A program made the position numbers and the translations under genes. A stretch of DNA of 24,000 bases, from assembly GCA_038317685.1 (NCBI GenBank), contig JBBQBQ010000005.1, forward strand, positions 6,984 to 30,983, given 5' to 3'. The notes under the pieces are model-generated. The model saw nothing but the letters and a program-made list of their open reading frames with translations, was not told the DNA's origin and did not search any database. Below, piece after piece: positions 3 to 23,155 of this stretch. The first letter of the stretch is position 1; the number at the start of each line of letters is the position of its first letter. This DNA is from Desulfuromonadales bacterium. GTDB lineage: Bacteria; Desulfobacterota; Desulfuromonadia; Desulfuromonadales; DDH964.

Positions 3-482
3 ATTCTCGCTGCCCAGTTCGAATCGTTCTTCGAGCCCTTCGCCATCATGCTCTCGCTGCCGCTCTCCATCGTCGGCATGGCCGGGATGCTCAAACTGAC
101 CGGCGACACCGTCAACATCATGTCGCTGATCGGCCTGATCATGCTCATGGGGCTGGTGACCAAGAACGCGATCCTCCTCGTCGATTACGCCAAAGTCCTG
201 CAGCGGCGCGACGGCAAGGGGCGGCGGGAGGCGGTCATCGAGGCCGGGCGCACCCGGCTGCGTCCCATCGTCATGACGACGCTGGCGATGATCTTCGGCA
301 TGCTGCCGCTGTTTCTCGCCATCGGTTCCGGCGCCGAGATGCGCGCGCCGCTGGCCCGCGCCGTCGTCGGCGGCCTGATCACCTCGACGCTGTTGACGCT
401 GATCGTGGTGCCGGTCGTTTATACCCTGATGGACGATTTCGGCGCCTGGCTCAAGCGCGCCTGGCGGGGGAGCCATGGCTGA
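3..482 (+). CDS. RND (AcrB/AcrD/AcrF-type) efflux permease, C-terminal fragment; 5' end lies outside the window
   Basis: Frame 3 is open from the window edge (ILAAQFESFFEPFAIMLSLPLSIVG...). TM10-12-like sequence typical of HAE1 RND pumps (LIGLIMLMGLVTKNAILLVDYA, RLRPIVMTTLAMIFGMLPL, GGLITSTLLTLIVVPVVY). Stop TGA at 480-482. Confidence 0.9.
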   Translation: MLAAQFESFFEPFAIMLSLPLSIVGMAGMLKLTGDTVNIMSLIGLIMLMGLVTKNAILLVDYAKVLQRRDGKGRREAVIEAGRTRLRPIVMTTLAMIFGMLPLFLAIGSGAEMRAPLARAVVGGLITSTLLTLIVVPVVYTLMDDFGAWLKRAWRGSHG

Positions 483-507
483 CAGCCATCCCTTGTCAGG
501 CCATTCG

Positions 508-560
508 ACCACCAAGACACCCAGCGCACCAAGCTGAAGGCCTGTTCGTGTCTTGGTGGT
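508..560 (+). repeat. 13-bp perfect inverted repeat (accaccaagacac / gtgtcttggtggt) with a 27-nt loop, in the RND-TolC intercistronic spacer
   Basis: Read directly: 508-520 is the exact reverse complement of 548-560. A competing small hairpin gtggt-gagg-accac (556-569) is followed by gtttt. Confidence 0.5.
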
Positions 561-619
561 GAGGACCACGTTTTCCTGGATAAACTTTGGTTGTTATCTT
601 CCGGAAAGGACCGCCGGTC

Positions 620-1924
620 ATGCTGACCATGCGATCACTGACACTCCTGTTGCTCCTGCTCCTTTTCACCCCGATCCTTCCGGCTCATGCCGGTGCGGGC
701 CGGAGTCTGAGCCTCGACCAGGCACTGGAGCTCGCCCTGAAGAACAACCATGACATCGGCAAGGCCGAGGCCTACGGGGAGTACGTCGAGGGGCGCTACC
801 GCGAGGAACGCGCCGCGGCCCTGCCGCAGCTGAGCTTGTCGGCCGCGGCCCGCTACCAGCGCGACGGCAGCCAAGCTCCCGACACCGTCGGCCGCCGGCT
901 GAGTAGCGGCCAGGTCAGTCTGGACCTGACCCAGCCGCTGTTTACCTGGGGGAAGATCGGCGCCGCCATCCGTGCCGCCGAGGTCGGCCGCCAAACGGCC
1001 GTCGAACGCGGCCGGCAAGCCCGCCAGACGGTGGTCCGGGACGTGACGGCGGCCTTCTACGACGTCCTCCTCGCCGATCAGCTGCTGCAGCTGGCGCAGC
1101 AGAACCTCGCCCAGAAAGAGCGCCACCTCGACGAGGCGCAGAAGAAGTTCGCCGCCGGGGTCGCCACCGACTACGACGTGCTGGCGGCCGAAGTCGCCCT
1201 GGAGAATGCCCGCCCCGAACTGATCCGGGGGGAGAATCAACTGCGCTTTGCCTACGACGCACTCGGCCTTCTCCTCCCAGATGCTGGGCCCTTTACTGCC
1301 AGCGGCTCCCTGGAGAGCGAACGGCAGCCTCCGCAGGACCAAGCCGCGGCGATCGCCCTGGCCTTGGCGGAGCGCCCCGATCTCGCCGAACAGGACCAGC
1401 AGGTGGCGATCTACCGGGAGCTGGTCACGATCGCCGCCGCCGACGACAAGCCCCGCCTCGATCTGCGCGGCGGCGCCGCCTGGAACAGCTGGGAGGGCCC
1501 CGGCGACCACGGCGACGGCCCCGGCTGGAACGGCGGCGTGTACCTCAGTTTCCCCTTTTTCGACGGCTGGCGCACCGCCGGCCGGGTCGCCGCCGCCAAG
1601 AGCGAGCTGCGCACCCGCCGCCTGGAAGAAGCCCAGCTGCGCGACTTCATCGTCCGGGAGGTGCGCGACGCAATTCGGGCGGTGCGCCAGTCCGACCAGA
1701 TCGTCGTCGCTCTTTCCGGGACGGTGAAGCAGGCGCTACGCCTGCTGGAGATGGCCGAACAGGGCTTCGGGTACGGGGTCAAGACCCGCCTCGATGTCGA
1801 GGATGCCCAGCTCAACCTCCTCCAGGCCGAAAGCAACCTGGCCCGCGCCCGCCGCGACTCTCTGGTGGCTCGCAGCCAACTGGTGTGGGCGACGGGCGGG
1901 GGAGGGCGGTCGGGGAGCGATTGA
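620..1924 (+). CDS. TolC-family outer membrane efflux protein
   Basis: ATG at 620 is preceded by GGAAAGGA (604-611). Signal peptide MLTMRSLTLLLLLLLFTPILPAHA. TolC/OMF-like coiled-coil repeat sequence (LSLDQALELALKNNHDI, AGVATDYDVLAAEVALENARP, YGVKTRLDVEDAQLNLLQAESNL). The ORF-track start at 587 is a less likely upstream start. Confidence 0.85.
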   Translation: MLTMRSLTLLLLLLLFTPILPAHAGAGRSLSLDQALELALKNNHDIGKAEAYGEYVEGRYREERAAALPQLSLSAAARYQRDGSQAPDTVGRRLSSGQVSLDLTQPLFTWGKIGAAIRAAEVGRQTAVERGRQARQTVVRDVTAAFYDVLLADQLLQLAQQNLAQKERHLDEAQKKFAAGVATDYDVLAAEVALENARPELIRGENQLRFAYDALGLLLPDAGPFTASGSLESERQPPQDQAAAIALALAERPDLAEQDQQVAIYRELVTIAAADDKPRLDLRGGAAWNSWEGPGDHGDGPGWNGGVYLSFPFFDGWRTAGRVAAAKSELRTRRLEEAQLRDFIVREVRDAIRAVRQSDQIVVALSGTVKQALRLLEMAEQGFGYGVKTRLDVEDAQLNLLQAESNLARARRDSLVARSQLVWATGGGGRSGSD

Positions 1925-2019
1925 CTTACCCCGGTTGATAGGGTATGAAGAAGCATCCCTTCCTTTCCGCCGGGGGGGCCGCCCCGCTGCCCCGATCCTG
2001 CCAAATTTGGAGATTCACG

Positions 2020-3219
2020 ATGATCCGACGGCTTGCCTGGTTTCTCTGCGCCCTCCTGCCGCTCCTTTCGGCCTGCGGTGATGGCGGAACCCCGACCCGC
2101 GAAAACCCCTTTGTTCCCCTGACGAGCCTGGAGATCCGCGCCGCCGCAGGGTCCATCGCCGCCGGCACCACCAGCCAGTTCCGGGTCTTCGGCCTCTACT
2201 CGGGGATCTTCGAACGGGAGCTGACCGACCGGGCGCAGTGGATCTCCTCCGAACCGACGATCCTGACCTTCAGCGACCTCCCGGGAGAGGCTGGGCTGGG
2301 CAAGGCCCTGCTCCCCGGCGTCGTGACCGTCAGCGCCTCTTACCAGGGCTTCACGGCCCAGGTCCCGGCGACCGTCACGGTCATGGTCCTCTCCAGCCTC
2401 GTCATCGCCCCGGCGAGCTCCCTGGAGAACCCCCAGGTCATCCCCCTCGGGTTTACCCAGCAGTTCACCGCGACCGGGACCTTTCAGGGCGGCGCCACCC
2501 AGGATCTGACCCGGGATGTCACCTGGGCCTCGGCCGCCGGCCAATTCAGCGTCGGCAACGGTGCCGACCAGGCCGGGTTGGTCACCCCCCTGGAGCCGGG
2601 GGATGCCGAACTGATCGCGACCTTTCAGGGGGTCACCGCGACCGCCTACCTGAGCCTCGCCTCGGCGGTTCTCAGCGAGATCACCATCGCCCCGAAGCTG
2701 TCAGCCAACCGGATGACGATGGCGCAGGGGACCAGCCAGCGGCTCACCGCCACCGGCCATTTTACCAACGACAGTCAGCGCGACATCACGGCCGAGGTGG
2801 TCTGGTCGGTCAGCCCGACGGGGATCGCCACGGCCGGCAACGACCCCGGCAGCGAGGGGTTGATCGAGGCCCTGATCCCCGGGACGACCTCGGTGAAGGC
2901 GACCCTGGGGAGCGTTAACGGCAGCGGGACCTTGACGGTCACCAATGCCTTCCTGACCGAAATCGAGGTCACCCTGGCTGATTCCGATGCCGTCATCGCC
3001 GTCAACGATACGACCCAGGCGAGCGCCACCGGAACCTTCTCCGACCTCACGACCCAGGATTTGAGCCTGGATGTGGCCTGGTCGACCGGGGACGGCGTCA
3101 TCGCCACGGTGAATTCCGCGGGTCTGGTCAGGGGTCTGGCGGCCGGAGAAGTGGAGATCATCGCCACCCTGGATGCCATCACCAGTTCGACCACCCCGAA
3201 AATCCTGACGGTTCAGTGA
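2020..3219 (+). CDS. Lipoprotein with four tandem bacterial Ig-like (Big_2-type) modules
   Basis: ATG at 2020 with GGAG at 2009-2012. Lipobox LLSAC in MIRRLAWFLCALLPLLSACGDGG. Four ~90-aa repeats begin LTSLEI, LSSLVI, LSEITI and LTEIEV, each with a G.T.Q..ATG.F....T.DLT..V.W pattern. Confidence 0.75.
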   Translation: MIRRLAWFLCALLPLLSACGDGGTPTRENPFVPLTSLEIRAAAGSIAAGTTSQFRVFGLYSGIFERELTDRAQWISSEPTILTFSDLPGEAGLGKALLPGVVTVSASYQGFTAQVPATVTVMVLSSLVIAPASSLENPQVIPLGFTQQFTATGTFQGGATQDLTRDVTWASAAGQFSVGNGADQAGLVTPLEPGDAELIATFQGVTATAYLSLASAVLSEITIAPKLSANRMTMAQGTSQRLTATGHFTNDSQRDITAEVVWSVSPTGIATAGNDPGSEGLIEALIPGTTSVKATLGSVNGSGTLTVTNAFLTEIEVTLADSDAVIAVNDTTQASATGTFSDLTTQDLSLDVAWSTGDGVIATVNSAGLVRGLAAGEVEIIATLDAITSSTTPKILTVQ

Positions 3220-3248
3220 CCCGAATCGTTGCTGACAGAGAGGCCATC

Positions 3249-3908
3249 ATGATCCGATCGATCCTTCTGCTCCTGAGTGTGGCATTGCTGGGGTTGTCGC
3301 CGGCCTTCAGCCTGGCCTGGGCGGCGGGTCCCGGGCCGTATGTGGAACTCCAGGGCCTGGGCACCTATGTCCTGGCCGGGCAAAGCGACTCCGCAACCGG
3401 GAGTTTCAACCTGAAGTACGATCCCGGCTATGGCGGCGCGCTGGCGATCGGCTACGATCTGGCCGAGGCCTACCCGGATTTCGGCCAGGGACGCGTCGAA
3501 CTGGAAGCCTCCTCCCGGACCAACACCCTCACCAAGGCGGAGTTCAAGGAAGGGTCGGTGGCGGCCGACGGTGAGATCAGGGTGGAAAGCCTGCTCCTCA
3601 ACACCTTCGCCGAATATCACCGTGGTTCGAACCTCGTCCCTTACCTCGGCTTCGGCCTCGGCTACGCCCGGGTGACGATGAAGCAGGCCACGGTTTACGG
3701 CCAACCCTTCGCCGACGACAGCGCCGGGGTGCTGGCCTTTCAGGGGGGGCTCGGCGTCGGCCTGGAAGTGAGCGACCATCTGACCTTCGATCTCGGCTAC
3801 CGGTTCTTCGGGACCCTCAAGCCGAGCTTCAAGAGCGCCGACGGCTCCAGCTTCGATGCCAAATATTCGAGCCACAATGCCCTGCTCGGCCTGCGGGTCC
3901 GCTTCTGA
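3249..3908 (+). CDS. Small outer-membrane beta-barrel protein (OMP_b-brl / OmpA-barrel-like)
   Basis: ATG at 3249 with AGAGAGG upstream. Signal peptide MIRSILLLLSVALLGLSPAFSLAWA. Alternating amphipathic strands (YLGFGLGYARV, AFQGGLGVGLEV, LTFDLGYRFFG). C-terminal beta-signal LLGLRVRF ends in Phe. Confidence 0.8.
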   Translation: MIRSILLLLSVALLGLSPAFSLAWAAGPGPYVELQGLGTYVLAGQSDSATGSFNLKYDPGYGGALAIGYDLAEAYPDFGQGRVELEASSRTNTLTKAEFKEGSVAADGEIRVESLLLNTFAEYHRGSNLVPYLGFGLGYARVTMKQATVYGQPFADDSAGVLAFQGGLGVGLEVSDHLTFDLGYRFFGTLKPSFKSADGSSFDAKYSSHNALLGLRVRF

Positions 3909-3938
3909 TCCGGCGACCGCCGGGCTTTCGCAACAAAT

Positions 3939-3978
3939 AACCGGAGCCGGCCCTTGGGCCGGCTCCGGTTGGTTTTTA
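3939..3978. terminator. Bidirectional rho-independent terminator between the convergent OMP and response-regulator genes
   Basis: Perfect 13-bp stem ccggagccggccc (3941-3953) / gggccggctccgg (3957-3969) with loop ttg. Flanked by ttggttttt on the plus strand and ttatttgttg on the minus strand. Confidence 0.85.
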
Positions 3979-3998
3979 CCACTCTGGCTGTCCTCACC

Positions 3999-4664
3999 TC
4001 ACCCCTCGAATTTGTACCCCGCCCCGTAGACCGAACGGATCAACTCCTCCTCCGGCGCCGCCACCTCCAGTTTCCTGCGCAGCTTCTTGATGTGACTGTC
4101 GATAGTGCGATCGCTGACGATGCGCTGGTCGGGGTAGATGTGGTCCATCAGCTGCTCCCGGGAGAAGATCCGTCCGGGGTGGGCGGCGAGATGCTGGAGG
4201 AGCTTGAACTCGACGGCGGTCAGTTCGATCTCCCGGTCGTGCCAGAGGGCCCGGAAGCGGTCGCCGTCGAGGCGCAGCCCGTTCCCCTGCGGACCGGGGC
4301 CCGCGCTGCGCCGCAGGACCGCCTTGACCCGCGCCACCACCTCCCGGGGGCTGAAGGGTTTGCAGATGTAATCGTCGGCCCCCAGCTCCAGACCGAGGAG
4401 CCGGTCGATCTCCTCGACCCGGGCGGTGACCATGATGATCGGCACCCCGGAGAAGGCCCGCAGCTCCTTGCAGACCTCCAGGCCGTCCCGGCCCGGCAGC
4501 ATCAGGTCGAGAAGAACCAGGGCCGGCTGGCTGGCCCGCACCCGGGAGGCCACGACCAGGCCGTCGCTGATGATGACGGGCTCAAACCCCGCCTGGCGCA
4601 GATAGTCGGCGAGGAGAGCCGCCAGCTTCGGCTCGTCTTCGACGATCAGAATCGTCCCGTTCAT
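3999..4664 (-). CDS. baeR: OmpR-family response regulator, BaeR-like
   Basis: Start [14 protein letters not shown] at 4664 forms an ATGA overlap with the upstream kinase stop. REC plus winged-helix domains. The segment [41 protein letters not shown] closely tracks my recollection of E. coli BaeR. The symbol is by similarity only. Confidence 0.85.
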
Positions 4665-6115
4665 GATGTGCCTTCCTGCAGCGGCAGCTCGATGTGCAGC
4701 CACACCCCCCCCAGGGGGGAAGGGGCGGCATGGATGAGCCCGCCGTGGGCCTCGACGATGTTGCGGCAGATCGCCAGCCCCAGGCCGGCTCCGCCGGTGG
4801 CGCGGCTGCGGGAGGAATCCACCCGGTAGAGCCGCTCGAAGATACGTTCCAGGGCGGCGGGGGGGACGCCGGGGGCGCTGTCCTGAAAGTCGATCAGCGC
4901 CCGTCGTCCGGCCGTGGTCAGGCGGATCTCCAGCCGGCCGCCGGGGTCGGTGTAGTTGAGGGAATTCTTGAGCAGATTGACGAAGAGTTGATGGAGACGA
5001 TCAGGGTCGCCGAAGCAGGGAAGTGCGTGTTTCGGCAGGTCGGCCTGGAGGGTCAAGGACTGGTGGGCGAAGGCGGCCCGGAACCCCTCCAGCGCCATGC
5101 CGAGGGTCGCCGTCAGGTCGAGATCCTCTTTGCGGTAATCGAGGGATCCCAGGTCGGAAAGCGCGAGCTGGTAGAGGTCGTCGATCAGCCGGGCCAGGTG
5201 CAGCACCTCGGCGTGCAGGGAGCCGACCGCCTCGGGGGTCGGTTGCCGGACCCCGTCCTGCAGGGCCTCGATCTCGCCGCGCAGGACCGCCAACGGGGTC
5301 CGCAGTTCATGGGAGATGTCGGCGACCCACTGGCGGCGGGTTCGTTCATTCTGCTCCAGGGTCAGCGCCAGGGTGTTGAAGTCCCGGGCCAATTGTCCCA
5401 GCTCATCGTCGCCGCTGACCGGCACCCGGGTCGTGTAGTGACCGGCGGTCAAGCGGTGGGTGGCCTCAGCCAATCCTTTGAGGGGGCGCACCAGGCGCTG
5501 GGCGAGGGGCAGGGAGATCAGCGCGGAAACCAGGAGCATGACCCCGGCGACCAGTCCCAGAGTCCCTTTCTGCTCCTTGACGAAGCGCAGTTGGTGGGCG
5601 TCCTCCAACCCTCGCCGGGGGATGAGACCGAGGTAGCCGATGACCCGGCTGTTCTGGAGAAGGGGGCGCGGTTCAAGCTCCGCGGCTCCCTCCGCCGGTC
5701 CGAAGACCGGGAGATGGTCGGCGTCAAGGAGGAAGACCCGTTTTTCAAACTGGGCGACAGGCCCCGGCGCCGGCTCCCGGGCGGGGCGTTCGCCCCGTTC
5801 GGCACGGCGTTCCAGGCGCCTTTCCAGTCGGGCCAGCTGCTCCGGCCCCACGGTTCCCGGCGGCAGGGTGCGGATCATCAGCCGCAGCCAGTTGACCGGC
5901 TGGTTGCGGAGAAACTCCCAGCTGCCATTCTCGGCGAAGGACTGTTCCAATTCTCCCGCCAGGTTTTCCAGTCGGTCCTGCTCCACGGTATTGACGTACT
6001 GCAGGAAGCCGCGGTTGAAGCTCCAGCGCACGATCAGGGACATGGAGAGGACGACGGCGGCGGTGGCCACGAGGATCGCCAGAAAGATGCGGTATTTGAT
6101 GTTGAATTTGAGCAT
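4661..6115 (-). CDS. baeS: Sensor histidine kinase, BaeS-like (2 TM, HAMP, HisKA, HATPase_c)
   Basis: ATG at 6115 ([37 protein letters not shown]) with GGAG about 9 nt upstream. H-box [19 protein letters not shown] boxes LLKNSLNYT and [19 protein letters not shown]. The GTG at 6157 in the ORF track is less likely. Confidence 0.85.
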
Positions 6116-6200
6116 GGCTGCGGCTCCGGCAAACGCGTCTGTCCTTGTTGGTATCACACTTCCCGGGAAAAAACATCGTCAAGCAGAGCAGAACCGCAAT

Positions 6201-6233
6201 TTCCACATTTCTTCCACATTTTCTCCGCATTCG
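6201..6233. promoter_or_regulatory. Three 11-bp-phased direct repeats (TTCCACATTTC / TTCCACATTTT / CTCCGCATTCG); candidate OmpR-family (BaeR-like) operator
   Basis: Read directly. The CC of the core TCCRCAWT sits at 6203, 6214 and 6225 (11-bp period). A fourth degenerate copy accgcaatt starts at 6193. Located about 86 nt from both divergent start codons (6115 and 6317). Confidence 0.45.
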
Positions 6234-6316
6234 TCGCCTAGTCTCATCCTCAAGCACGGCCGACATGAGGTCGCCGGATCGTGACATCGAAGCCACCACC
6301 CATAAAGGAGGTCGCC

Positions 6317-6934
6317 ATGAACCGAACCACCACAACCCGCCGTTTTTCCCGTTCCGCCCTGGCTCTGCTGCTGGGGATCGGACTGGTCCTGACCGCCGCC
6401 CCTTCCTGGGCCGAGCGAAACGAGCGATCCGACCACGCCGATCGCCGGCAGGTGACGGTCGTCAAACGCCTCCCCGCCGGTCATCGAACCGTCCGGGTCC
6501 ATGACATCGATTATGCCGTCGCCGACGGACGGTATTACCGGCGTGAGGCCGCCGGCTTGGTTCTGGTCCCGCCGCCGATTGGCGCCGTGGTCCTCAACCT
6601 CCCCGCCGGCCGCTTGAGCATCAACCTCGGCGGGGTCGCCTACTTCCGCAGCGGCGACGTCTATTTCCGGGCCGCCCGCCACGGCTACGAGGTGGTTGCT
6701 CCGCCCCCGGTTCAGATCCGAGCGGCCCGGGACGATCTGCGCATCGTGGTTCGCGCGGCCCTGCTCAATGTGCATTCCGGCCCGGCCCGGAACGCCGTCG
6801 TCATCAACCAGGTTCACTCCGGCTCCCGTCTGGTCGTCACCGCTCAGGCTCCCGGCTGGTACCGGGTCCGTCTACCGGGCGGTGGTCAGGGCTGGATCAT
6901 GAGCAAGTACGCGGGTTCGGCTGCGGCCGGTTGA
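6317..6934 (+). CDS. Secreted protein with a C-terminal bacterial SH3 (SH3_3) domain
   Basis: AAGGAGG at 6305-6311 and ATG at 6317. Signal peptide MNRTTTTRRFSRSALALLLGIGLVLTAAPSWA. C-terminus LLNVHSGPARNAVVINQVHSGSRLVVTAQAPGWYRVRLPGGGQGWIMSKY is SH3_3-like. The middle region (Y.V.DG.YY...V.V.PP.GAVV..LP.G) resembles DUF6515-type repeats from memory, unverified. Confidence 0.7.
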   Translation: MNRTTTTRRFSRSALALLLGIGLVLTAAPSWAERNERSDHADRRQVTVVKRLPAGHRTVRVHDIDYAVADGRYYRREAAGLVLVPPPIGAVVLNLPAGRLSINLGGVAYFRSGDVYFRAARHGYEVVAPPPVQIRAARDDLRIVVRAALLNVHSGPARNAVVINQVHSGSRLVVTAQAPGWYRVRLPGGGQGWIMSKYAGSAAAG

Positions 6935-6996
6935 CAGAGTCGACGACACCCGTAACCTTCACCGGGGCTCTGCCCCTTAGCCAAGGAGAATCAATC

Positions 6997-7485
6997 ATGA
7001 AAAAACACCTGTTCATTGGCGCTTTGCTCACCGCCGCCCTGGCCGCCGGCCCCGCCCTTGCCACCCCGCCCCATTCTGCCGGCCCCGGTGGCGACCGACC
7101 CCACCGCTTTGAAAGCGGGCACCGCCAGGAGCGGATGGCCGCCATCCTCGGCTTGAGCCAGGAGCAGCAGGCGCAGATCAAGGCGATCCGGGAAGAGGCT
7201 CGCCGCCAAACCGAATCCCTGCGGCAAAGCCTGGCCGCCGATCGGGAAAAGCTGCGGACGCTGATCGACGCCGTCCCCTTTGATGAAACGGCGGTTCGCA
7301 TGCTCGCCGCCGGAGAAGTGACGGCCAAAACCGAACTCCTCGTTGCCAGAGCCCGGACCCGGAACCAGATCCACGCTATCCTGACTCCGGAACAGCGGGT
7401 CCTGGCCGAAAAGCTTCGTCCGCTGCTTGAGGAGCGTCGTGGCCACCGGGGGCGTGGACATGCGGTCCATGATGGCGAAAGGTAG
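6997..7485 (+). CDS. Spy/CpxP-family periplasmic chaperone or stress protein (LTxxQ motifs)
   Basis: AAGGAGAA at 6983-6990 and ATG at 6997. Signal peptide MKKHLFIGALLTAALAAGPALA. Two LTxxQ-type motifs (LSQEQQAQIKAI and LTPEQRVLAEKL) in a helical, charged protein of the right size. Confidence 0.75.
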   Translation: MKKHLFIGALLTAALAAGPALATPPHSAGPGGDRPHRFESGHRQERMAAILGLSQEQQAQIKAIREEARRQTESLRQSLAADREKLRTLIDAVPFDETAVRMLAAGEVTAKTELLVARARTRNQIHAILTPEQRVLAEKLRPLLEERRGHRGRGHAVHDGER

Positions 7486-7636
7486 GCCGGCTCCGGGCGA
7501 TGGGGAGCAATGGGCTCCTCCCGAACACAACATTTAAATCCTTTTAACCTTGTTCAAAGCGATATACTGATGACCATCCGGAGCCGGCCGCCGTCGCGCG
7601 GTCGGCTCCCGGTCCTTTCTTCCAAAGGCGGAAATT

Positions 7637-9001
7637 ATGCGCAACTGTATCCTGCTGCTGATCCTCTCTATCCTCCTGGTCACCCTCGACGGGCTGGCCC
7701 GCGCCGCCGACAGTGAGGGTACGCTGCGATTGACGCTGCCGCAGGCGGTCGTTCTGGCCCTGGCCGCCAATCCCGACTTGACCCTGTCCCGCAGCCAGGA
7801 GCGGTCCGCCGTGGTGGCGGTGGAAACAGCCCGCGGCCGTTTCCTTCCCGACCTCCAGGCCAGCGGCAGCGGCCGGGAGAACTGGCAGCACCAGGCGCCG
7901 CCGGGGACCTCCGATGAATATCGTACCGTCAACCTGGGGCTCGCCTCATCGTTGAACCTTTTCAACGGCTTTGCCGACAGCGCCGGGCTCGGCAGCGCCC
8001 GTCAGCAGCTCCAGGCGGCCTCCGCCACCCTGGAACGCCAGCGGCAGACGATCGCCTTCGACACCGCCAGCCGCTTCATCGCGGTCCTCAGCGATCAGGA
8101 ACTGGTGCAGGTGGCGGAGCAGAACCTGACCAGCCAGAAGGCGCTGCAGGAACAGATCGACGCCTTCTACCGGGCCGGGGTGCGGTCGGTCACCGATCTT
8201 TATCAGCAGCAGGCGGCGACCGCCCTGGCCCAGTTCAACCTCATCAACGCCCGTCGCAATCTCCAGGTCGACCGGTTGCAGCTCCTCCAGACCCTCGGTC
8301 AGAACCCGCCGACGACGGTGGAGGTGGTGGCGCCGGGCGCCGTCGATGTTGGCGCCGCCCTGCCGAACCTCGATCTGGCGGAGCTTTACCGGCAGGCCCT
8401 CCTGGCCCGTCCCGACCTCACCGCTCAGGAGCGGCAGCTCGAGGCGTCCCGGGAAGCGATCCGCGTCGCCCGGGCCGGCTATCTGCCGACCCTCGCCCTG
8501 CAGGCCGATGCCGGTTCCAACTACAACAGCCAGAGTCACGGCAGCCTTTCCGGCCAGCTTGGCGACGACAATCTCGGCGCCAGCATCGGGGTGGCCTTGT
8601 CGGTGCCGATCTTCGACCGCGACCAGACCCGCACCAGCGTCGCCCAGGCCCGCCTCGGGGCCGACGACGCCGCGACCCGGCTGGCCAAATTGAGGCAGCA
8701 GGTCGGGGCCGAGGTCGGCCAGGCGCTGTCTGACTACCGCAGCGCCGAAGAGCAGCTGACGGCGGCGACCGAGCAGCTCAGCTACGCCCGCCAGGCCCTG
8801 GCGGCGACCGAAGCCCGCTACCGGGTCGGCGCCTCGACCTGGATCGAACTCTCCACCGCCCGTTCGACCCTGGTTCAGGCCCAAGGGGACGAAGTCCGGG
8901 CCCGCTACGCCGTCCTGCTGCAGGGCTTGAACCTCGGCTATGCCGCTGGCGACCTCGATCCCCTGCTGAACCGCCTGAACCCCCAGGAGCACTCCTCATG
9001 A
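7637..9001 (+). CDS. TolC-family outer membrane efflux protein; first gene of the MacAB-type operon
   Basis: ATG at 7637. Signal peptide MRNCILLLILSILLVTLDGLARA. OMF repeats (LTLPQAVVLALAANPDL, AGVRSVTDLYQQQAATA, YRVGASTWIELSTARSTLVQAQ). Stop overlaps the next start (ATGA at 8998-9001). Confidence 0.85.
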   Translation: MRNCILLLILSILLVTLDGLARAADSEGTLRLTLPQAVVLALAANPDLTLSRSQERSAVVAVETARGRFLPDLQASGSGRENWQHQAPPGTSDEYRTVNLGLASSLNLFNGFADSAGLGSARQQLQAASATLERQRQTIAFDTASRFIAVLSDQELVQVAEQNLTSQKALQEQIDAFYRAGVRSVTDLYQQQAATALAQFNLINARRNLQVDRLQLLQTLGQNPPTTVEVVAPGAVDVGAALPNLDLAELYRQALLARPDLTAQERQLEASREAIRVARAGYLPTLALQADAGSNYNSQSHGSLSGQLGDDNLGASIGVALSVPIFDRDQTRTSVAQARLGADDAATRLAKLRQQVGAEVGQALSDYRSAEEQLTAATEQLSYARQALAATEARYRVGASTWIELSTARSTLVQAQGDEVRARYAVLLQGLNLGYAAGDLDPLLNRLNPQEHSS

Positions 9002-10212
9002 CCCGCACCGCCCGTCTTTTGCTGCGCAGTTCCATCGTCCTGATCGTCCTGGCGGTCGTCATCGCCGGTCTTTACCTGTGGCGCGGCGCCGGTTCGGCGA
9101 AGTCCGCCGCCGCCCCCTATCTGACCGCACCGGTTGTCCGCGGCACCTTGGAGCGCACCGTCTCTTCCACCGGCACCCTTGCCGCCGTGGAAACGGTGAC
9201 GGTCGGCACCGAGGTCTCGGGGACGGTGGCGAAGGTCCTGGTCGACTTCAATAGCAAGGTGACGAAGGGGGAAATTATGGCGGTCCTCAAGCCCGACCTC
9301 TTCAACGCCGCCGTCGCCGATGCGGGAGGGACGGTGACCCAGACCGAGGCGGGCCTCGCCCAGGCCGAGGCCGACCTGGAACGCAACCGCCCGCTCTTTG
9401 ACCAGGGTTACCTTGCCGCGCAGGAATTCCTCCCCTACCAGACCGCCCGCGACAAGGCCCGGGCGGGCCTCGTTTCGGCCCGGGCCGGACTGGCCCGGGC
9501 CCGCACCAACCTGGGGAATGCGACGATCCGCTCGCCGATCGCCGGCACCGTTATCCAGCGCAGCATCGATGCCGGGCAGACGGTGGCGGCCAGTCTCAAC
9601 ACCCCGACCCTCTTCATCATCGCCAAGGACCTGGCGCGGATGCAGATCGAGGCGGCCGTCGACGAGACCGACATCGGCCAGATCCAGCCCGGCCAGCCGG
9701 TCCGTTTCAGCGTCCAGAGTTACCCGGAGAGGACCTTTACCGGCAGCGTTCGCCAGGTGCGGCTGCAGCCGACGACGGTGCAGAACGTCGTCACCTATAC
9801 TGTCATTGTCGAGGCGGCCAACGACGACAAGGTCCTCCTTCCCGGCATGACCGCCACCGTTGACTTCGTCGTCGAACGGGTCGAGGGAGCGTTCCTCGTC
9901 CCCAACGCCGCCCTGCGCTTCAAGCCGACCCGTCCCGGCGGCGAGACGGCCGCGCCCGACGCAGAGGTTACCGGAGACGCGGCGACCGGCAAGGGGCGCC
10001 CCCGAGGCCCCCGGCTCTTCACGGTCACCGCGGAAGGGCGCCTGGAGCCCCACCAGGTCACGGCCGGCAGCAGCAACGGCCAGCAGACCGTCGTTACCGG
10101 TGACGATCTCAAGGAAGGGCTGTCCGTCGTCACCGGGGTGAACGCTGCGGGGTCCAAGCCGAAGGCGAGCTTCTCCCTCTTCGGCGCCATGCGCGGCAGG
10201 CCGTCACGATGA
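8998..10212 (+). CDS. macA: Efflux membrane-fusion protein (HlyD/MacA family)
   Basis: N-terminal TM anchor, then YLTAPVVRGTLERTVSSTGTLAAVETVTVGTEVSGTVAKVLVDFNSKVTKGE (lipoyl/beta-barrel signature), a coiled-coil hairpin, and RSPIAGTVIQRSIDAGQTV. ATGA overlaps at both ends. Confidence 0.85.
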   Translation: MTRTARLLLRSSIVLIVLAVVIAGLYLWRGAGSAKSAAAPYLTAPVVRGTLERTVSSTGTLAAVETVTVGTEVSGTVAKVLVDFNSKVTKGEIMAVLKPDLFNAAVADAGGTVTQTEAGLAQAEADLERNRPLFDQGYLAAQEFLPYQTARDKARAGLVSARAGLARARTNLGNATIRSPIAGTVIQRSIDAGQTVAASLNTPTLFIIAKDLARMQIEAAVDETDIGQIQPGQPVRFSVQSYPERTFTGSVRQVRLQPTTVQNVVTYTVIVEAANDDKVLLPGMTATVDFVVERVEGAFLVPNAALRFKPTRPGGETAAPDAEVTGDAATGKGRPRGPRLFTVTAEGRLEPHQVTAGSSNGQQTVVTGDDLKEGLSVVTGVNAAGSKPKASFSLFGAMRGRPSR

Positions 10213-10958
10213 ACGCCGAAACCCTCCTCGTTCGCGACGTGACCAAGGTCTTCAACCTCGGGGATGTCCAGGTCCACGCCCTGCGCGGGGTCTCCCTCAG
10301 CGTCCGCCAGGGGGAGTTCGTCGCCGTCATGGGGAGTTCCGGGAGCGGCAAATCGACCCTGATGAACATCCTCGGCTGCCTCGATCTGCCGACCTCCGGC
10401 GACTATCACCTCGACGGCGTCGCCGTCGGCAGTCTCAGCCGCAACCGTCTTGCTGACCTGCGCAACGAAAAGATCGGCTTCGTTTTTCAGGGCTTCAACC
10501 TCCTGGCGCGGACCACCGCCCTGGAGAACGTCGAACTGCCGCTCCTCTACGATCGCCGTCACCGGGTCGCCCGGCCCCATGAAGCGGCCGTCGAGGCGCT
10601 CACCCGGGTCGGTCTCGGCGAGCGCCTCCACCACCATCCCAACCAGCTCTCCGGCGGCCAGCAGCAGCGGGTCGCCATCGCCCGCGCCCTCGTCAACCAG
10701 CCGGCCATCGTCCTTGCCGACGAGCCGACCGGCAACCTCGACAGCCGTACCACCCTGGAGGTCCTCGCCCTCTTCCAGCAGCTCAATCGGGAGGGGTTGA
10801 CCCTGATCCTCGTCACCCACGAAGCCGAGGTCGCCCGCTACGCCTCGCGCCGCGTCGAACTGCGTGACGGCCGGGTGCTGCGCGACGAGCCGGTGACGGC
10901 ACCGCGGGACGCCGTCGCCGACCTTGCTGTCCAGCCGGCATTGGAGGAGGAATCATGA
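10209..10958 (+). CDS. ABC transporter ATP-binding protein (MacB/LolD-type ATPase, encoded separately)
   Basis: Walker [11 protein letters not shown]-loop FVFQGFNLL, signature [15 protein letters not shown], Walker [14 protein letters not shown]-loop LVTHE. Confidence 0.95.
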
Positions 10959-12172
10959 AGTGGCGCAAGCTCCTCAAGGTCGCCCTGCAGAGTATTGCCC
11001 GCAACAAGATGCGCAGCCTGCTGACCATGCTCGGCATCATCATCGGCGTCGGCTCGGTCATCAGCCTCGTCGCCCTCGGCGAAGGGTCGCAGAAGGATAT
11101 CGAGGGGCAGGTCGCCTCCCTCGGGACCAACCTCCTGATGATCCAGGCCGGCAGCAGCCACATCGGCGGTGTCCAGGGGGGGGCCGGGACCCTCGAAGCC
11201 CTGACCATGGCCGATGTCGCCCTGCTGCAGAAGGATGCCCCGCTCCTCCAGGGGGTCTCGCCGGAGATCCGCGTGCAGAGCCAGGTCGTCGCCGCCGACC
11301 ACAACTGGAACACCACCATCTTCGGCGTTTTCCCCGACTACCTGATGATCCGCAACTTTCCCCTTGCCTCCGGGGCTGTCTTCGGTGAACGGGACCTGGC
11401 GACCCGCGCCAAGGTCGCCCTCCTCGGGAAAACCGTCGCCGACCAGCTCTTTCCCGGGGAGGACCCGGTCGGGGCGCGCATCCGCATCCGCAACGTCCCC
11501 TTCCTGGTCGTCGGGATCCTCGCCTCCAAGGGCCCCTCGGCGATGGGGAGCGACCAGGACGACGTCATCCTCGCCCCGGCCACCACCGTCCTTTATCGCC
11601 TCGGCGACGGCAAGACGGTCCGCTCCATCGTCGCCAGCGCCGTCTCCGGCGAGCAGATGGCGGGCGCCAAGGCCGAAATCACGGCGGTCCTGCGGGAGGC
11701 CCATCGCCTTGCTCCCGACGCCGTCGACGACTTCCACCTGCGCGACCAGACCGAGATCAACCAGATGGCGACCCGCGTCACCGGCACCCTGACCCTCCTG
11801 TTGACCGCCATCGCCGGGGTCTCCCTGGTCGTCGGCGGCATCGGCATCATGAACATCATGCTGGTCTCGGTCACCGAGCGCACCCGCGAGATCGGCCTGC
11901 GTCTCTCCATCGGCGCCCGCCCCCGCGACATCCTCTCCCAGTTCCTTCTGGAGGCGGCGACCTTAAGCCTCTTCGGCGGCATCCTCGGTATCGTCGGCGG
12001 CCTTGGCGGCGCCTTTCTCGGCGGCCGCCTGCTCGGCATCAGCGTCGTCGTCAACCCCGGGGTGATCGTCGTCGCCGTCCTCGTCACCGGTGCCATCGGC
12101 ATCTTCTTCGGCTTCTACCCGGCCCGCAAGGCTGCCAACCTCAACCCCATCGACGCGCTGCGCTACGAGTGA
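10955..12172 (+). CDS. ABC transporter permease (MacB periplasmic domain plus FtsX 4-TM module)
   Basis: [42 protein letters not shown], a large periplasmic loop, and a C-terminal FtsX-like region (GGIGIMNIMLVSVTERTREIGLRLSIGARPRDIL ... FFGFYPARKAANLNPIDALRYE). Confidence 0.95.
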   Translation: MKWRKLLKVALQSIARNKMRSLLTMLGIIIGVGSVISLVALGEGSQKDIEGQVASLGTNLLMIQAGSSHIGGVQGGAGTLEALTMADVALLQKDAPLLQGVSPEIRVQSQVVAADHNWNTTIFGVFPDYLMIRNFPLASGAVFGERDLATRAKVALLGKTVADQLFPGEDPVGARIRIRNVPFLVVGILASKGPSAMGSDQDDVILAPATTVLYRLGDGKTVRSIVASAVSGEQMAGAKAEITAVLREAHRLAPDAVDDFHLRDQTEINQMATRVTGTLTLLLTAIAGVSLVVGGIGIMNIMLVSVTERTREIGLRLSIGARPRDILSQFLLEAATLSLFGGILGIVGGLGGAFLGGRLLGISVVVNPGVIVVAVLVTGAIGIFFGFYPARKAANLNPIDALRYE

Positions 12173-19791: not shown

Positions 19792-20256
19792 TCAGGGGAT
19801 TCCCGCCAGGGCGCCGAAGAGGAAAGGCTGGCTGGCGATGGTGATATCCCCCAGCAGTTCGAGTAGCGGAACCGTCAGGGCCGGCAAAGGGAACGTGCCG
19901 AACTGGATGCCGCGGACACAGCGGCGACCATGGGCCAGGGTCGGATAGGCCTTGCAGATGTCCGGTTTAAGGTCGTGGATCGCGCACCCTGAACTTTGCG
20001 GACCGGTTGGCTGTAGGAAGGGGCAGATTTCGATCCGCGCCTTGGTCTGGGGATCGACCCAGATCCAGCCGAGCCGGTTGACCCGCTGCACCAGATCGTC
20101 CCGCCCCATCTCCCGCCAGCGTTTCAGGTCGGACGCTGATGCATGCAGGTGGCCGCCAAAGAGCTGGCAGCACTGGCCGCAGGCCCGGCATCCTTTGGGA
20201 CGCCTTTCTTGTCGATTTCCCCCGAGATTCAACCAATCCAACAACCGGTCAACCAT
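19792..20256 (-). CDS. YkgJ-family cysteine-cluster protein (CxxCxxCC, putative Zn/Fe-chelating)
   Basis: AGGGAGG upstream of the ATG at 20256. CRACGQCCQLFG, CPFLQP and CAIHDLKPDICKAYP match the PF03692 pattern. Hydrophobic C-terminal tail. Confidence 0.8.
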   Translation of the reverse strand: MVDRLLDWLNLGGNRQERRPKGCRACGQCCQLFGGHLHASASDLKRWREMGRDDLVQRVNRLGWIWVDPQTKARIEICPFLQPTGPQSSGCAIHDLKPDICKAYPTLAHGRRCVRGIQFGTFPLPALTVPLLELLGDITIASQPFLFGALAGIP

Positions 20257-20313
20257 GGCCACCTCCCTTTCGGCGGGTTGCTGACCCGCCGCCTCGGTCC
20301 GGGGCCGGCTCCG

Positions 20314-20360
20314 CACGCAAAACCGCCGCCCGGCTGCTGCCGACACGGCGGTTTTGCGTG
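20314..20360 (-). other. 15-bp perfect inverted repeat (stem-loop) between hgcB and the YkgJ-like gene; terminator or leader structure
   Basis: cacgcaaaaccgccg (20314-20328) is the exact reverse complement of cggcggttttgcgtg (20346-20360). The 17-nt loop contains a further cggc/gccg pairing. No U-tract follows on the minus strand. Confidence 0.5.
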
Positions 20361-20500: not shown

Positions 20501-20794
20501 TCAACAACTCGATCCGCCGCAGTCGCAGCTCGGTTCCTCCCCGGTGAGCCAGCCGTGGATGATGGCGCTGGCGCAGCCGACCCCGGCCTTGACCGTAAGC
20601 GCCGTGACCGGGCAGTTGCGGGCGCAGGCGCCGCATTCCATGCAGCGGTCCCGGACGACGATGGCCGCCTTCTTCGCGGCCAGGGCGAAGACCCCGTGGG
20701 GGCAGACTTCGAGGCAACGGCCGCAGCCGATACAGGCCGGTTGATCCAGTTCCAGGGTCGTCACCCCGGAGAGATAGAGCAATCCCGTCGTCAT
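20501..20794 (-). CDS. hgcB: HgcB, 2x[4Fe-4S] ferredoxin of the mercury methylation pair
   Basis: CIGCGRCLEVCP and CMECGACARNCP (the C(M/I)ECGA signature), conserved GVGCA cysteine, and Cys-rich tail SCDCGGSSC. The ATG at 20794 is preferred because GGAGGA lies 7 nt upstream inside the hgcA 3' end; the track start at 20812 would overlap hgcA by 14 nt. Confidence 0.9.
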   Translation of the reverse strand: MTTGLLYLSGVTTLELDQPACIGCGRCLEVCPHGVFALAAKKAAIVVRDRCMECGACARNCPVTALTVKAGVGCASAIIHGWLTGEEPSCDCGGSSC

Positions 20795-20798
20795 TGTT

Positions 20799-21971
20799 TC
20801 ATCCTCCGACAAAGCCTCCGAACACCCAGGCCACCGCGGCGATCAGCAAGGCTCCTCCCTGGAAGGGGATGGCCCGGCGCATCTCTTTCTCCACCCCCGA
20901 CGGGGAGGTGTAGGTGGTCGATCCGGTAAAGTTCATGGCGCACCAGGAAGCGACCGCCGGCAGGGCCAGCAGGAGGGCGGCGCCGTTCCAGAAACCGAGC
21001 GTCCCCCGGGCCAGCAGGAGGCCGACGACGGCCAGCATGGCCCCGAGTTCCGCCCCCTTGACGGCAAAGGCGCGCCCCGGTAGCCAGGGGAGGAGGATCG
21101 GTGTCAGGACCGCTCCGGCCACTACCCCGGTCAGGCCGACGGCAATCGCCAGTCCTCCCCGCAGGAGGGCCGCCGCCGGGTGAAAGAATTGGGGGCCAAG
21201 GGCGCCGATGGCGAGGAGGCCGAGGCAGCTCCAGCCGATCTGTCGGGCCATGCCGGTCAACTCCACCGGGGTCAGGACCAGTCTCTCCCCCAGGGTGAAG
21301 GTCACCCGCCGCATCGCCGGTGTCGCCTTCATGCCGGCGGCCAGAAAGACCGCCACATCGGCGGCCCGCACCGGGCCGTAGATCACCCGGAAGCCAGTCT
21401 GACGTTCCACCAGGTGAGCGGCGACCCCGGGGGCGCCGAGTTGGGGGAGGACCAGGACCCGGTGGCTGACGACCCGCTCCAGAGCGGTCCCCCGGACCTG
21501 ACGGACCACCTCTGTGGTGCCGAAGGTCCCCTTGCCGGCGGCGCACCAGACGTTGATCCCCTCCGTCTCCAGGACCAGGATCCATAGATGCAGTCCGGCC
21601 AGTCGGCAGCGGAGGGCATCGAAGGAGAGCTTGTAGTTGGCGGTGACGAGGACCGGCGAGCCGTCATGAGGGGTGCCGACGGCGTAGAGGCCGGGGGGGA
21701 TGCGGTAGCGCCTTCGCCCCAACCCCCAGCGCATCTGCCAGCGGCCGAAGCTATCCCGCACGGCCAGGCGGGTGGCGACCTGGGGGACCGTCCCGGCCGG
21801 GGTCTCCAGCCAGTCGCTGACGAAGGGCCAGACCCGCAGACCGGGACGTTCACCGGTCAGCGCAGCGGGAAGGCAGGCGGGGCGGGGGGGACAGCAGGCA
21901 CCGGCCGGCTCCGACCCGGAGAGGCCGGTCTCCGCGGGAAGTCGGTCAGTCTCCGTCAGCACTTCAGGCAC
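20799..21971 (-). CDS. hgcA: HgcA, corrinoid protein of the mercury methylation pair (N-terminal corrinoid-binding domain plus C-terminal TM domain)
   Basis: Cap-helix signature NVWCAAGK is encoded at 21531-21554 (checked codon by codon). Flanking CFeSP-like sequence VLVTANYKLSFDALR...GTFGT, then several hydrophobic helices. The annotated start is a GTG with a poor Shine-Dalgarno, so the 5' boundary is uncertain (see findings). Confidence 0.9.
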   Translation of the reverse strand: MPEVLTETDRLPAETGLSGSEPAGACCPPRPACLPAALTGERPGLRVWPFVSDWLETPAGTVPQVATRLAVRDSFGRWQMRWGLGRRRYRIPPGLYAVGTPHDGSPVLVTANYKLSFDALRCRLAGLHLWILVLETEGINVWCAAGKGTFGTTEVVRQVRGTALERVVSHRVLVLPQLGAPGVAAHLVERQTGFRVIYGPVRAADVAVFLAAGMKATPAMRRVTFTLGERLVLTPVELTGMARQIGWSCLGLLAIGALGPQFFHPAAALLRGGLAIAVGLTGVVAGAVLTPILLPWLPGRAFAVKGAELGAMLAVVGLLLARGTLGFWNGAALLLALPAVASWCAMNFTGSTTYTSPSGVEKEMRRAIPFQGGALLIAAVAWVFGGFVGG

Positions 21972-21995
21972 CGCACCCGGCGGCGCTTTCGGTGG

Positions 21996-22073
21996 TCAAC
22001 ACCCCGTATCGGCCGCTGGTTCCGGTACACCGGATGGGGGGGCGGGCGAGAATTCCGGTTCGATGTCGTTCAT
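21996..22073 (-). other. 25-codon ORF in the hgcA frame (MNDIEPEFSPAPPSGVPEPAADTGC-TGA); leader peptide or Sec read-through extension
   Basis: ATG is the complement of 22071-22073, with GGAG (22083-22086) 9 nt upstream. TGA at 21996-21998 lies 8 codons before the GTG at 21971, in the same frame (102 nt apart). Confidence 0.3.
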
Positions 22074-22090
22074 CGGGTCAGTCTCCGTGT

Positions 22091-23155
22091 TCAAAGGAGC
22101 CGGCCGCCGGTTTTTTTGAGTTCGGCGTGGGCGTGGCGCAGCATCCGTTCGGTGGTGGCCCAGTCGACGCATTTGTCGGTGATCGATACCCCGTATTTGA
22201 GGTCGGCCAGATGCTGCTGGATCGGTTGGTTGCCGGCTTCGAGGTTGCTCTCGATCATCACCGATGAGATCGAACGATTGCCGGCGCTGAGCTGTTGCAG
22301 CACGTTGCCCAGAACCTCTTCCTGGCGCTCATGATTCTTGTAGGAATTGGCGTGGCTGCAGTCGACCATGATGGCATTGTTGAGCCCGGCCTTGGCGAGG
22401 AGGTCCTCGGTGCGGCGAATGTCTTCGGGGAAGTAGTTGGGGCTGTCGTTGCCGCCGCGCAGGACGATGTGGACGTCGAGGTTGCCGGTCGTCTGGACGA
22501 TGGCATTGAGGCCTTCGTTGTTGATGCCGAGGAAGTTGTGGGGGTGGCGGGCGGCGCCCATGGCGTCGATGGCGATCTGCAGGTTGCCGTCGGTGCCGTT
22601 CTTGAAGCCGACCGGAAAGGAGAGGCCGCTGGCCATCTCCCGATGGGTCTGGGATTCGGTGGTGCGGGCGCCGATGGCCCCCCAGCTGACCAGATCGGCG
22701 AGAAACTGCGGGGTGATCGGGTCGAGCATTTCGCCGGCGACCGGCAGGCCGAGGTCGGTGATGGCGCAGAGCAGGCCGCGGGCCACGCCGAGCCCTTTGG
22801 AGATCTGATGGCTGCCGTTCAGGTCCGGGTCGTTGATCAGGCCTTTCCAGCCGATGGTGGTCCGCGGTTTTTCGAAATAGACGCGCATCACCAGCAGCAG
22901 CTGATCCTGCAACTCCTGGCCGAGGGCGGTGAGGCGCCGGGCATAGTCGAGGGCGGCGCGGGGGTCGTGAATCGAGCAGGGCCCAACCACGACCATCAGT
23001 CGCCGGTCCCGCCGGTGCAGGATGTCGACCACCGCCTGGCGGGCGTTGTAGACGTTCTCGGCACCGGATTCAGAGAGGGGGAAGACCTGTTTCAGGTCGG
23101 CGGGGGCGATGACCGGAGTGAGCCCCCGGATCCGTAGATTGTTGGTCCGTTTCAT
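22091..23155 (-). CDS. 3-deoxy-7-phosphoheptulonate (DAHP) synthase, class I (AroF/G/H type)
   Basis: RLMVVVGPCSIHD, VMRVYFEKPRTTIGWKGLINDP, WGAIGARTTESQTHREMASGLS.PVGFKNGTDG and MVDCSHANS are hallmark class I DAHPS blocks. Confidence 0.95.
   Translation of the reverse strand: MKRTNNLRIRGLTPVIAPADLKQVFPLSESGAENVYNARQAVVDILHRRDRRLMVVVGPCSIHDPRAALDYARRLTALGQELQDQLLLVMRVYFEKPRTTIGWKGLINDPDLNGSHQISKGLGVARGLLCAITDLGLPVAGEMLDPITPQFLADLVSWGAIGARTTESQTHREMASGLSFPVGFKNGTDGNLQIAIDAMGAARHPHNFLGINNEGLNAIVQTTGNLDVHIVLRGGNDSPNYFPEDIRRTEDLLAKAGLNNAIMVDCSHANSYKNHERQEEVLGNVLQQLSAGNRSISSVMIESNLEAGNQPIQQHLADLKYGVSITDKCVDWATTERMLRHAHAELKKTGGRLL

Follow-up and report, generated by a model that had tools for sequence, protein, structure and literature searches.

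The window analyzed here, a stretch of 24,000 nucleotides of contig JBBQBQ010000005.1 from a Desulfuromonadales bacterium, contains on its minus strand the gene hgcA, whose product, HgcA, makes methylmercury, a neurotoxic compound accumulating in food webs. The analysis concerned the 5′ end of this gene, at which an earlier examination of the letters alone (hereinafter, the sequence-only reading) had noticed an in-frame TGA codon between a short open reading frame (ORF) and the GTG recorded as the start of hgcA, and had proposed that this TGA might be decoded as selenocysteine (Sec, U in motifs).

The 5′ end of hgcA on the minus strand

The features of hgcA, in window coordinates, were as follows:

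22083–22086, minus strand: GGAG, Shine–Dalgarno (SD)-like sequence, read directly, with a 9-nt spacer to the ATG
22071–22073, minus strand: ATG, proposed true start of hgcA, the first ATG past the stop of the upstream gene, preceded by the SD
21999–22070, minus strand: codons 2–25 of the N-terminal extension, NDIEPEFSPAPPSGVPEPAADTGC, by translation, ending in Cys25 (TGT 22001–21999)
21996–21998, minus strand: TGA, putative selenocysteine codon (residue 26), conserved in frame and aligned with Cys in Cys-type relatives
21969–21971, minus strand: GTG, database start of hgcA (ORF list and record P0001), interpreted as Val35 in the 3′ arm of the hairpin
21968–21986, minus strand: hairpin of the selenocysteine insertion sequence (SECIS) type, with 5′ arm GCGCCGC (21986–21980), loop CGGGU (21979–21975) and 3′ arm GCGGUGC (21974–21968)
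21891–21896, minus strand: second vicinal Cys pair, C60–C61, in the motif GACCPPRPA (residues 58–66), by direct reading and translation
20799–22073, minus strand: full-length hgcA, 424 codons including the predicted Sec26, with the stop at 20801–20799

The GGAG, its 9-nt spacer, the ATG, the TGA, the peptide PPKAPPGA, the GTG and the hairpin were all found at the minus-strand positions at which the sequence-only reading had located them. The ORF of 25 codons opened by ATG 22073 translates as MNDIEPEFSPAPPSGVPEPAADTGC and ends at the TGA, after which the same frame continues for 8 codons as PPKAPPGA up to the old GTG, without any other stop. The stop codon of the upstream gene, which encodes DAHP synthase (22093–22091), ends 4 nt before the GGAG, and GGAG-like sequences (GGAGAC/GAGAC) also precede the ATG in loci L014 and L001 of the relatives described below. 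The hairpin starts 9 nt past the TGA, encodes A-P-P-G-A-V and includes the GTG in its 3′ arm. No SD was found ahead of GTG 21971, and the earlier remark that this codon lies inside the 3′ arm and lacks a convincing SD was borne out by direct reading.

The public record P0001 (390 aa) was 100% identical to the product of ORF 20799–21971. The core of HgcA, residues 96–421, scored 434.6 bits with the equivalog model NF040863 (HgcA_corrinoid; profile positions 1–324 of 325), for which the curated cutoff is 275, and this match leaves the N-terminal extension uncovered. The first 75 residues of the full-length protein form a tail containing 17 Pro and 11 Ala. The pair C60–C61 in this tail aligned with the nearly invariant CCPP of relatives, C60 being kept in at least 90% of 60 sequences; the second motif seen earlier downstream of the TGA, GACCPPRPA, is therefore real, but its CC lies 35 residues past the Sec position rather than the 34 previously given.

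Conservation of the TGA and of the downstream hairpin

The comparison covered 42 hgcA loci from genomes and 58 from metagenomes, plus the loci of the closest database homologs, and TGA codons were sought by walking upstream in the hgcA frame from the core at each locus. An in-frame C-TGA was conserved in about 20 relatives, in most of them in the form C-TGA-P-P. It was found in the genome loci L001, L012, L014, L027 (Fundidesulfovibrio agrisoli), L031 and L034, in the closest homologs from Desulfuromonas carbonis (L043/L044), L045 and L046, and in the metagenome loci L048, L050, L053, L054, L056, L059, L081 and L099; D. soudanensis WTL (L105) carries an hgcA of the same CUPPKAPPGA type. Fifteen loci share the nucleotide pattern TGY-TGA-CCN-CCN-(AAA)-GCG-CCG-CCG-GGN-GCG-GYG, which corresponds to CUPPKAPPGA. 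The conservation of both the in-frame TGA and the peptide flanking it agrees with the proposal of a C-U-P-P extension. The Cys directly before the TGA was invariant in all Sec-type loci (15/15 aligned relatives), the rest of codons 2–25 being variable; the 34-residue extension suggested earlier is conserved at the protein level only in part, with the Cys-Sec pair and CUPPKAPPGA kept and codons 2–24 variable. An in-frame ATG was present 12–26 codons before the TGA in 16/16 Sec-type relatives with a complete and unshifted upstream sequence, a count from which L048 (cut at the contig end) and L018 (frame-shifted) were left out.

The CUPPKAP segment aligned with CCPPKAP of the Cys-type locus L010 (CCPPKAPPA) and with CCPPxK of L003, L007 and P0015, so that the TGA stood opposite Cys in orthologs, in line with the alignment suggested by the sequence-only reading; the homolog P0005 has Ser at the aligned Sec position. 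Judged from this alignment, the TGA and Cys, with homology on both sides, form a classical Sec/Cys pair. The Cys-type relatives carry from one to six CCPP units, and in Sec-type genes a CU stands for the first of these, the order in the window being CU, then CC; the earlier idea of a duplicated CxPP motif in which Sec takes the place of the second Cys is borne out by this repeat structure. The residues around CU varied: the window has GCUPP, the relatives have PCUPP, RCUPP, ACUPP and SCUPP, and PCUGP occurred in L031 and L081 only.

A separate observation concerns L018, a locus of a long-read metagenome-assembled genome (positions ~2905 and 3001), which was found by a DNA pattern search and not by the frame walk. 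It contains the full CUPPKAPPGA sequence together with the hairpin, but in a frame other than that of the hgcA core match, which begins 95 nt farther on; this mismatch is probably due to an indel error in the assembly or to a real frameshift.

The hairpin was compared with the bacterial SECIS (bSECIS) model of Zhang and Gladyshev (2005), for which a 2026 review (PMC13188914) gives a loop of 3–9 nt with a G among its first two nucleotides, a stem of 4–16 bp, a UGA-to-loop distance of 16–37 nt, and a minimum free energy ≤ −7.5 kcal/mol. The window hairpin lies within all four constraints (5-nt loop with G at position 2, 7-bp stem, 16 nt from UGA to loop, −11.5 kcal/mol), and so did 11/11 distinct hairpin forms in the relatives. 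In four lineages, different stems (GCGCCGC, UCCGGC, GUCCGCC and GGGGCUC) had the same geometry at 16–19 nt. A strict hairpin test requiring a G-U loop was passed by 6/7 TGA sites, the seventh having the same stem with a CGGGA loop, and by none of the 65 Cys-Cys sites of relatives (0/65). The SECIS-compatible geometry claimed earlier was thus upheld, both by the bSECIS constraints and by the presence of the hairpin at TGA sites with none at the Cys-Cys sites.

The background rate of comparable hairpins was 0.7% of positions, and only 0.86% of the synonymous recodings of PPKAPPGAVPEVLT, generated with the gene's own codon usage, formed such a hairpin. The stem codons GCG and CCG were invariant, although the gene prefers GCC and CCC, and the third positions of the spacer and loop varied. 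The Cys-type locus L010 encodes nearly the same peptide, PPKAPPA, without the 3′ arm. Across 14 distinct relatives, the hairpin positions were 98% paired, with one variable stem pair within the Desulfuromonas-like clade (GC in 8, GU in 4 and AU in 1). The fold z-score of the 76-nt region was −0.09, the hairpin alone being unremarkable in DNA with 67% GC; single-sequence thermodynamics cannot tell it from the GC-rich background. The structural support rests on the differing stems across lineages, the Cys-site control and the synonymous-site analysis. The combination of TGA, hairpin and conservation is far beyond chance. Meanwhile, other sites in the window at which a TGA is accompanied by a hairpin (5416, 7571, 14869 and 3742) were considered and rejected, since they are among stop codons and represent chance matches.

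The window element resembles the bacterial SECIS of the E. coli fdhF type in being a coding-sequence stem-loop just 3′ of the UGA with a small loop opening with G-G/U. It differs from that type in its short, perfect, GC-rich stem of 7 bp, which has neither a bulged U nor a lower stem, and relative to the bSECIS model its 16-nt spacing is at the lower limit.

Probable selenocysteine recoding, its alternatives and its relation to known systems

It was concluded from these comparisons that the hgcA of the window is very probably a selenoprotein gene with a wrong database start, its TGA being read as Sec (probability of approximately 0.88); the evidence showing the recoding is comparative. Translation would start at ATG 22073, with the SD sequence GGAG 9 nt upstream, and the UGA at 21998–21996 would be recoded to selenocysteine, the 7-bp hairpin with its CGGGU loop, 9 nt past the UGA, acting as the bacterial SECIS that recruits SelB with Sec-tRNA(Sec). 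A UGA accompanied by a SECIS and read by SelB carrying Sec-tRNA(Sec) is the established route of Sec insertion in bacteria. The GTG at 21971 would then be a plain Val35 codon inside the 3′ arm of the hairpin. The predicted product is an HgcA of 424 residues, in which a Pro/Ala-rich and probably flexible N-terminal tail of ~75 residues would precede the corrinoid-binding and membrane domains and would bear Cys25-Sec26 (CUPPKAPPGA) and, 35 residues on, Cys60-Cys61 (CCPPRPA). Three genes of this window, hgcA, hgcB and that for DAHP synthase, end at an ordinary TGA stop; since TGA terminates genes here and the TGA of hgcB has no hairpin, the recoding would be site-specific and not a consequence of a variant genetic code.

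In a different explanation, the 25 codons form a separate upstream ORF that ends at the TGA, and translation of this leader peptide melts the hairpin and exposes GTG 21971 (translational coupling). The position of the GTG within the 3′ arm, 24 nt past the TGA, would suit such coupling; moreover, the GTG is the start chosen by gene callers in the window, L045 and D. soudanensis, and an HgcA without the extension was catalytically competent in E. coli lysate (PMC11588087; use of the old start is assumed). However, the GTG is kept in only 6/15 relatives and is replaced by GCG in 8/15 and by GGG in 1/15, a U/C change at this position toggling between G·U and G-C pairing with the G of the 5′ arm, and it has no SD ahead of it. 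Close homologs do not agree in the starts that databases give them (GTG, GTG or ATG at +9 to +18 codons). In L048 and L059, no ATG, GTG or TTG was found between the TGA and the conserved core RPG..W.FV..TP.G.VP, so that the HgcA of these two loci could not be made without decoding the UGA; in L099, the sole candidate start after the TGA lies inside the core. Furthermore, the eight residues PPKAPPGA that follow the TGA and precede the GTG are conserved and align with the uninterrupted coding sequence of the Cys-type relatives, whereas the leader sequence is unconserved except for its last Cys. The leader peptide has a very slight probability on these grounds.

A dual output, with Sec-extended HgcA made in the presence of selenium and, upon failure of recoding, a shorter form lacking Sec that arises from the GTG or through reinitiation, is highly unlikely. 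The GTG is available for this purpose in the window, the truncated HgcA was active in vitro (PMC11588087; old start again assumed), and UGA recoding in E. coli, according to one report, is only 30–40% efficient and depends on selenium (PMC4513850). Nevertheless, the GTG is neither conserved nor preceded by an SD, several relatives are unable to make the short form, and nothing speaks directly for reinitiation. Conversion of TGC or TGT to TGA by a recent nonsense mutation (with hgcA as a pseudogene) or by an error of sequencing or assembly would take one substitution, and Cys-type relatives do exist; its probability is nonetheless negligible, as about 20 independent assemblies, two complete isolate genomes among them, share the TGA, which is accompanied by a dedicated hairpin and followed by an intact gene with the 434.6-bit match to NF040863. 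The leader peptide and the nonsense mutation had both been listed as alternatives by the sequence-only reading, and both are effectively refuted by the sequences compared, the former by the absence of the GTG from 9/15 relatives and by the two relatives without a start codon after the TGA, and the latter by the conservation of the TGA.

Several points weigh against recoding of the TGA to Sec and against the function proposed for it. No gene or tRNA of the Sec machinery was found among the annotated ORFs of the window, several overlapping and short ORFs being unscanned, and the contig from which the window comes has a length of only about 31 kb. Formal covariation among the 15 aligned relatives was not significant (176/500 shuffles reached the observed score), because the stem is nearly invariant within the Desulfuromonas-like clade. 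A search of Rfam at the gathering and E ≤ 10 thresholds gave no SECIS match and only snoRNA/lncRNA noise; this null result is uninformative, as there is no sign of a usable Rfam model for bacterial SECIS of this type. No experimental report of selenium in HgcA was found, and in a PNAS study of 2024 the selenoprotein status of HgcA is a suggestion from sequence analysis (PMC11588087). According to the same study, HgcA of ND132 made in E. coli was active in lysate, and the extension is undiscussed in the paper (PMC11588087). We assume that the ND132 construct used the old annotated start; if so, the tail is probably dispensable for catalysis in lysate. Finally, the function considered most likely for the CU and CC pairs, capture and delivery of Hg(II), is one that we infer by analogy.

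With regard to the Sec machinery, D. soudanensis WTL was reported to have 13 selenoprotein genes (PMC12013277), and the use of Sec by Desulfuromonas acetoxidans and by species of Geobacter has long been known (PMC1794560). The hgcA subtype and gene order of the window are shared by D. soudanensis WTL, which lends indirect support, by analogy, to the presence of this machinery in the lineage of the window.

Independently, a preprint by Haft in 2022 described most HgcA proteins as selenoproteins bearing a CU motif near the N-terminus (bioRxiv 10.1101/2022.07.06.499078); it was later published as Haft and Gwadz (2023, J Bacteriol 205:e00259-22), and the 2026 review lists HgcA (NF040863) with the motif CU (PMC13188914). 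The selenoprotein nature of the HgcA family is therefore already published, and what is new here is a member of the CUPPKAPPGA subtype, mis-annotated in databases. Like the HgcA selenoproteins described by Haft, the hgcA of the window has one in-frame UGA upstream of the old start and a CU within a short extension of the N-terminus; both cases also have homologs of the Cys type that are "packed" with additional CC motifs, and database entries truncated after the UGA. PCUGP was invariant in the 20 genes considered in that work, whereas the window has GCUPP within CUPPKAPPGA; this difference defines a minor subtype and is not a reason for exclusion, since the CU that defines the group is preserved, as is its location near the N-terminus. 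No SECIS is described for HgcA in the main text of the preprint, and its supplements gave no text match for CUPP or CUGP. In comparison with that main text, the recoding hairpin of the window has been defined and tested computationally.

The records for HgcA of the CUPP type are truncated after the TGA, as in P0001 (390 aa versus 424) and in D. carbonis WP_231875342.1 (376 aa). RefSeq names the latter "mercury methylation corrinoid protein HgcA", yet keeps the truncated form. The reannotation described by Haft may not be reaching, or not covering, the CUPPKAPPGA subtype. The window adds a new lineage in which the selenoprotein form is probably confirmed, a definition of the CUPPKAPPGA subtype, and a controlled description of the hairpin usable by annotation pipelines.

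Vicinal thiolate or thiolate/selenolate pairs are a standard device for handing off Hg(II) in MerT, MerA and HgcB. The CC of MerT, the C-terminal CC of MerA, the C-terminal CC of HgcB and the CU motifs of the SAO proteins (SaoL, SaoB and SaoC) are all adjacent Cys-Cys or Cys-Sec pairs located in a flexible segment of a mercury-handling protein. The tail of HgcA differs from these in having a CU followed by a CC repeat, with up to six CCPP units in relatives, and the likeness is one of analogy; the same parallel between vicinal Cys pairs is drawn by Haft (bioRxiv 10.1101/2022.07.06.499078). By this analogy, the CU and CC pairs of HgcA would capture Hg(II) as thiolate/selenolate ligands of very high affinity and pass it toward the methyl-corrinoid site. 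If native HgcA carries the N-terminal Cys-Sec pair, most database entries have a wrong start and most biochemical constructs are without a probable Hg(II)-binding site.

It would follow from Sec recoding, if true, that full-length HgcA is made only where both selenium and the Sec machinery are available. It is nevertheless rather unlikely that Sec at codon 26 lets selenium gate or throttle mercury methylation, with translation in low selenium stopping after 25 residues and yielding hardly any HgcA or none. Such a gate, if real, might contribute to the extremely low abundance of HgcA and would tie the selenium–mercury antagonism in sediments directly to a molecular mechanism. A backup isoform lacking Sec might be produced from the non-conserved GTG in the SECIS arm, in this window only.

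Genes adjacent to hgcA and other regions of the window

Two genes flank hgcA on the same strand:

20501–20794, minus strand: hgcB, encoding the ferredoxin partner (NF040864, 131.1 bits versus a cutoff of 99), directly downstream of hgcA
22091–23155, minus strand: DAHP synthase gene (aroG/aroF type; NF009395 and TIGR00034), located 17 nt before the new ATG

The likely start of hgcB is ATG 20794, with GGAGGA upstream. HgcB ends in CDCGGSSC followed by TGA (20501–20515), that is, in a single terminal Cys as opposed to the Cys-Cys usual for the family, and HgcB with a single Cys was also found in L002–L004, L009–L012, L014, L043–L047, L049–L051, L053, L057 and L058. The codon after the single terminal Cys was TGA in 21/22 distinct single-Cys HgcB sequences, while the stops of CC-ending HgcB were TGA (11), TAG (4) and TAA (5), and 53% of hgcA stops were TGA. 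The terminal Cys and TGA of hgcB were considered as a second Sec site (cf. SaoC) and rejected: there was no conserved hairpin 5–20 nt downstream, the tails were unconserved, and what follows the TGA looked non-coding. The terminal TGA of hgcB behaves as an ordinary stop. The uniform TGA of single-Cys HgcB is probably inherited, because TGA is likewise the stop of those HgcB in the clade that end in CC.

No terminator-like site was found between the DAHP synthase gene and hgcA, and the only promoter-like site lies upstream of the DAHP synthase gene (23256–23228); the DAHP synthase gene and hgcAB are probably on the same transcript. The synteny of DAHP synthase with hgcAB is kept in Desulfuromonas- and Geobacter-like relatives, with called genes in L043–L046 and L105 and with the C-terminus of DAHP synthase visible in the upstream translation in L003, L014, L054, L057, L059 and L095. 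The gene order yggT, divIVA, DAHP synthase, hgcA, hgcB, DAO oxidase and GGDEF regulator matches that of D. carbonis and D. soudanensis.

Approximately 150 nt past hgcB, a gene on the minus strand (19792–20346) encodes a protein of 184 aa for which Pfam gave a putative zinc- or iron-chelating domain of the CxxCxxCC type (PF03692, E = 4e-7); NCBIfam yielded no match for it, and the corresponding place in D. carbonis is without a gene. Farther away, two large ORFs, 3954–4829 and 4694–6241, gave no match to Pfam. On the plus strand, positions 48–12172 of the window are occupied by a run of envelope and efflux genes, which encode the end of an AcrB-family protein, two outer-membrane efflux proteins, Big_2 and beta-barrel proteins, an LTXXQ/heavy-metal-resistance (Spy/CpxP-like) protein, an HlyD-type adaptor, and a MacB-type ABC ATPase with its permease.

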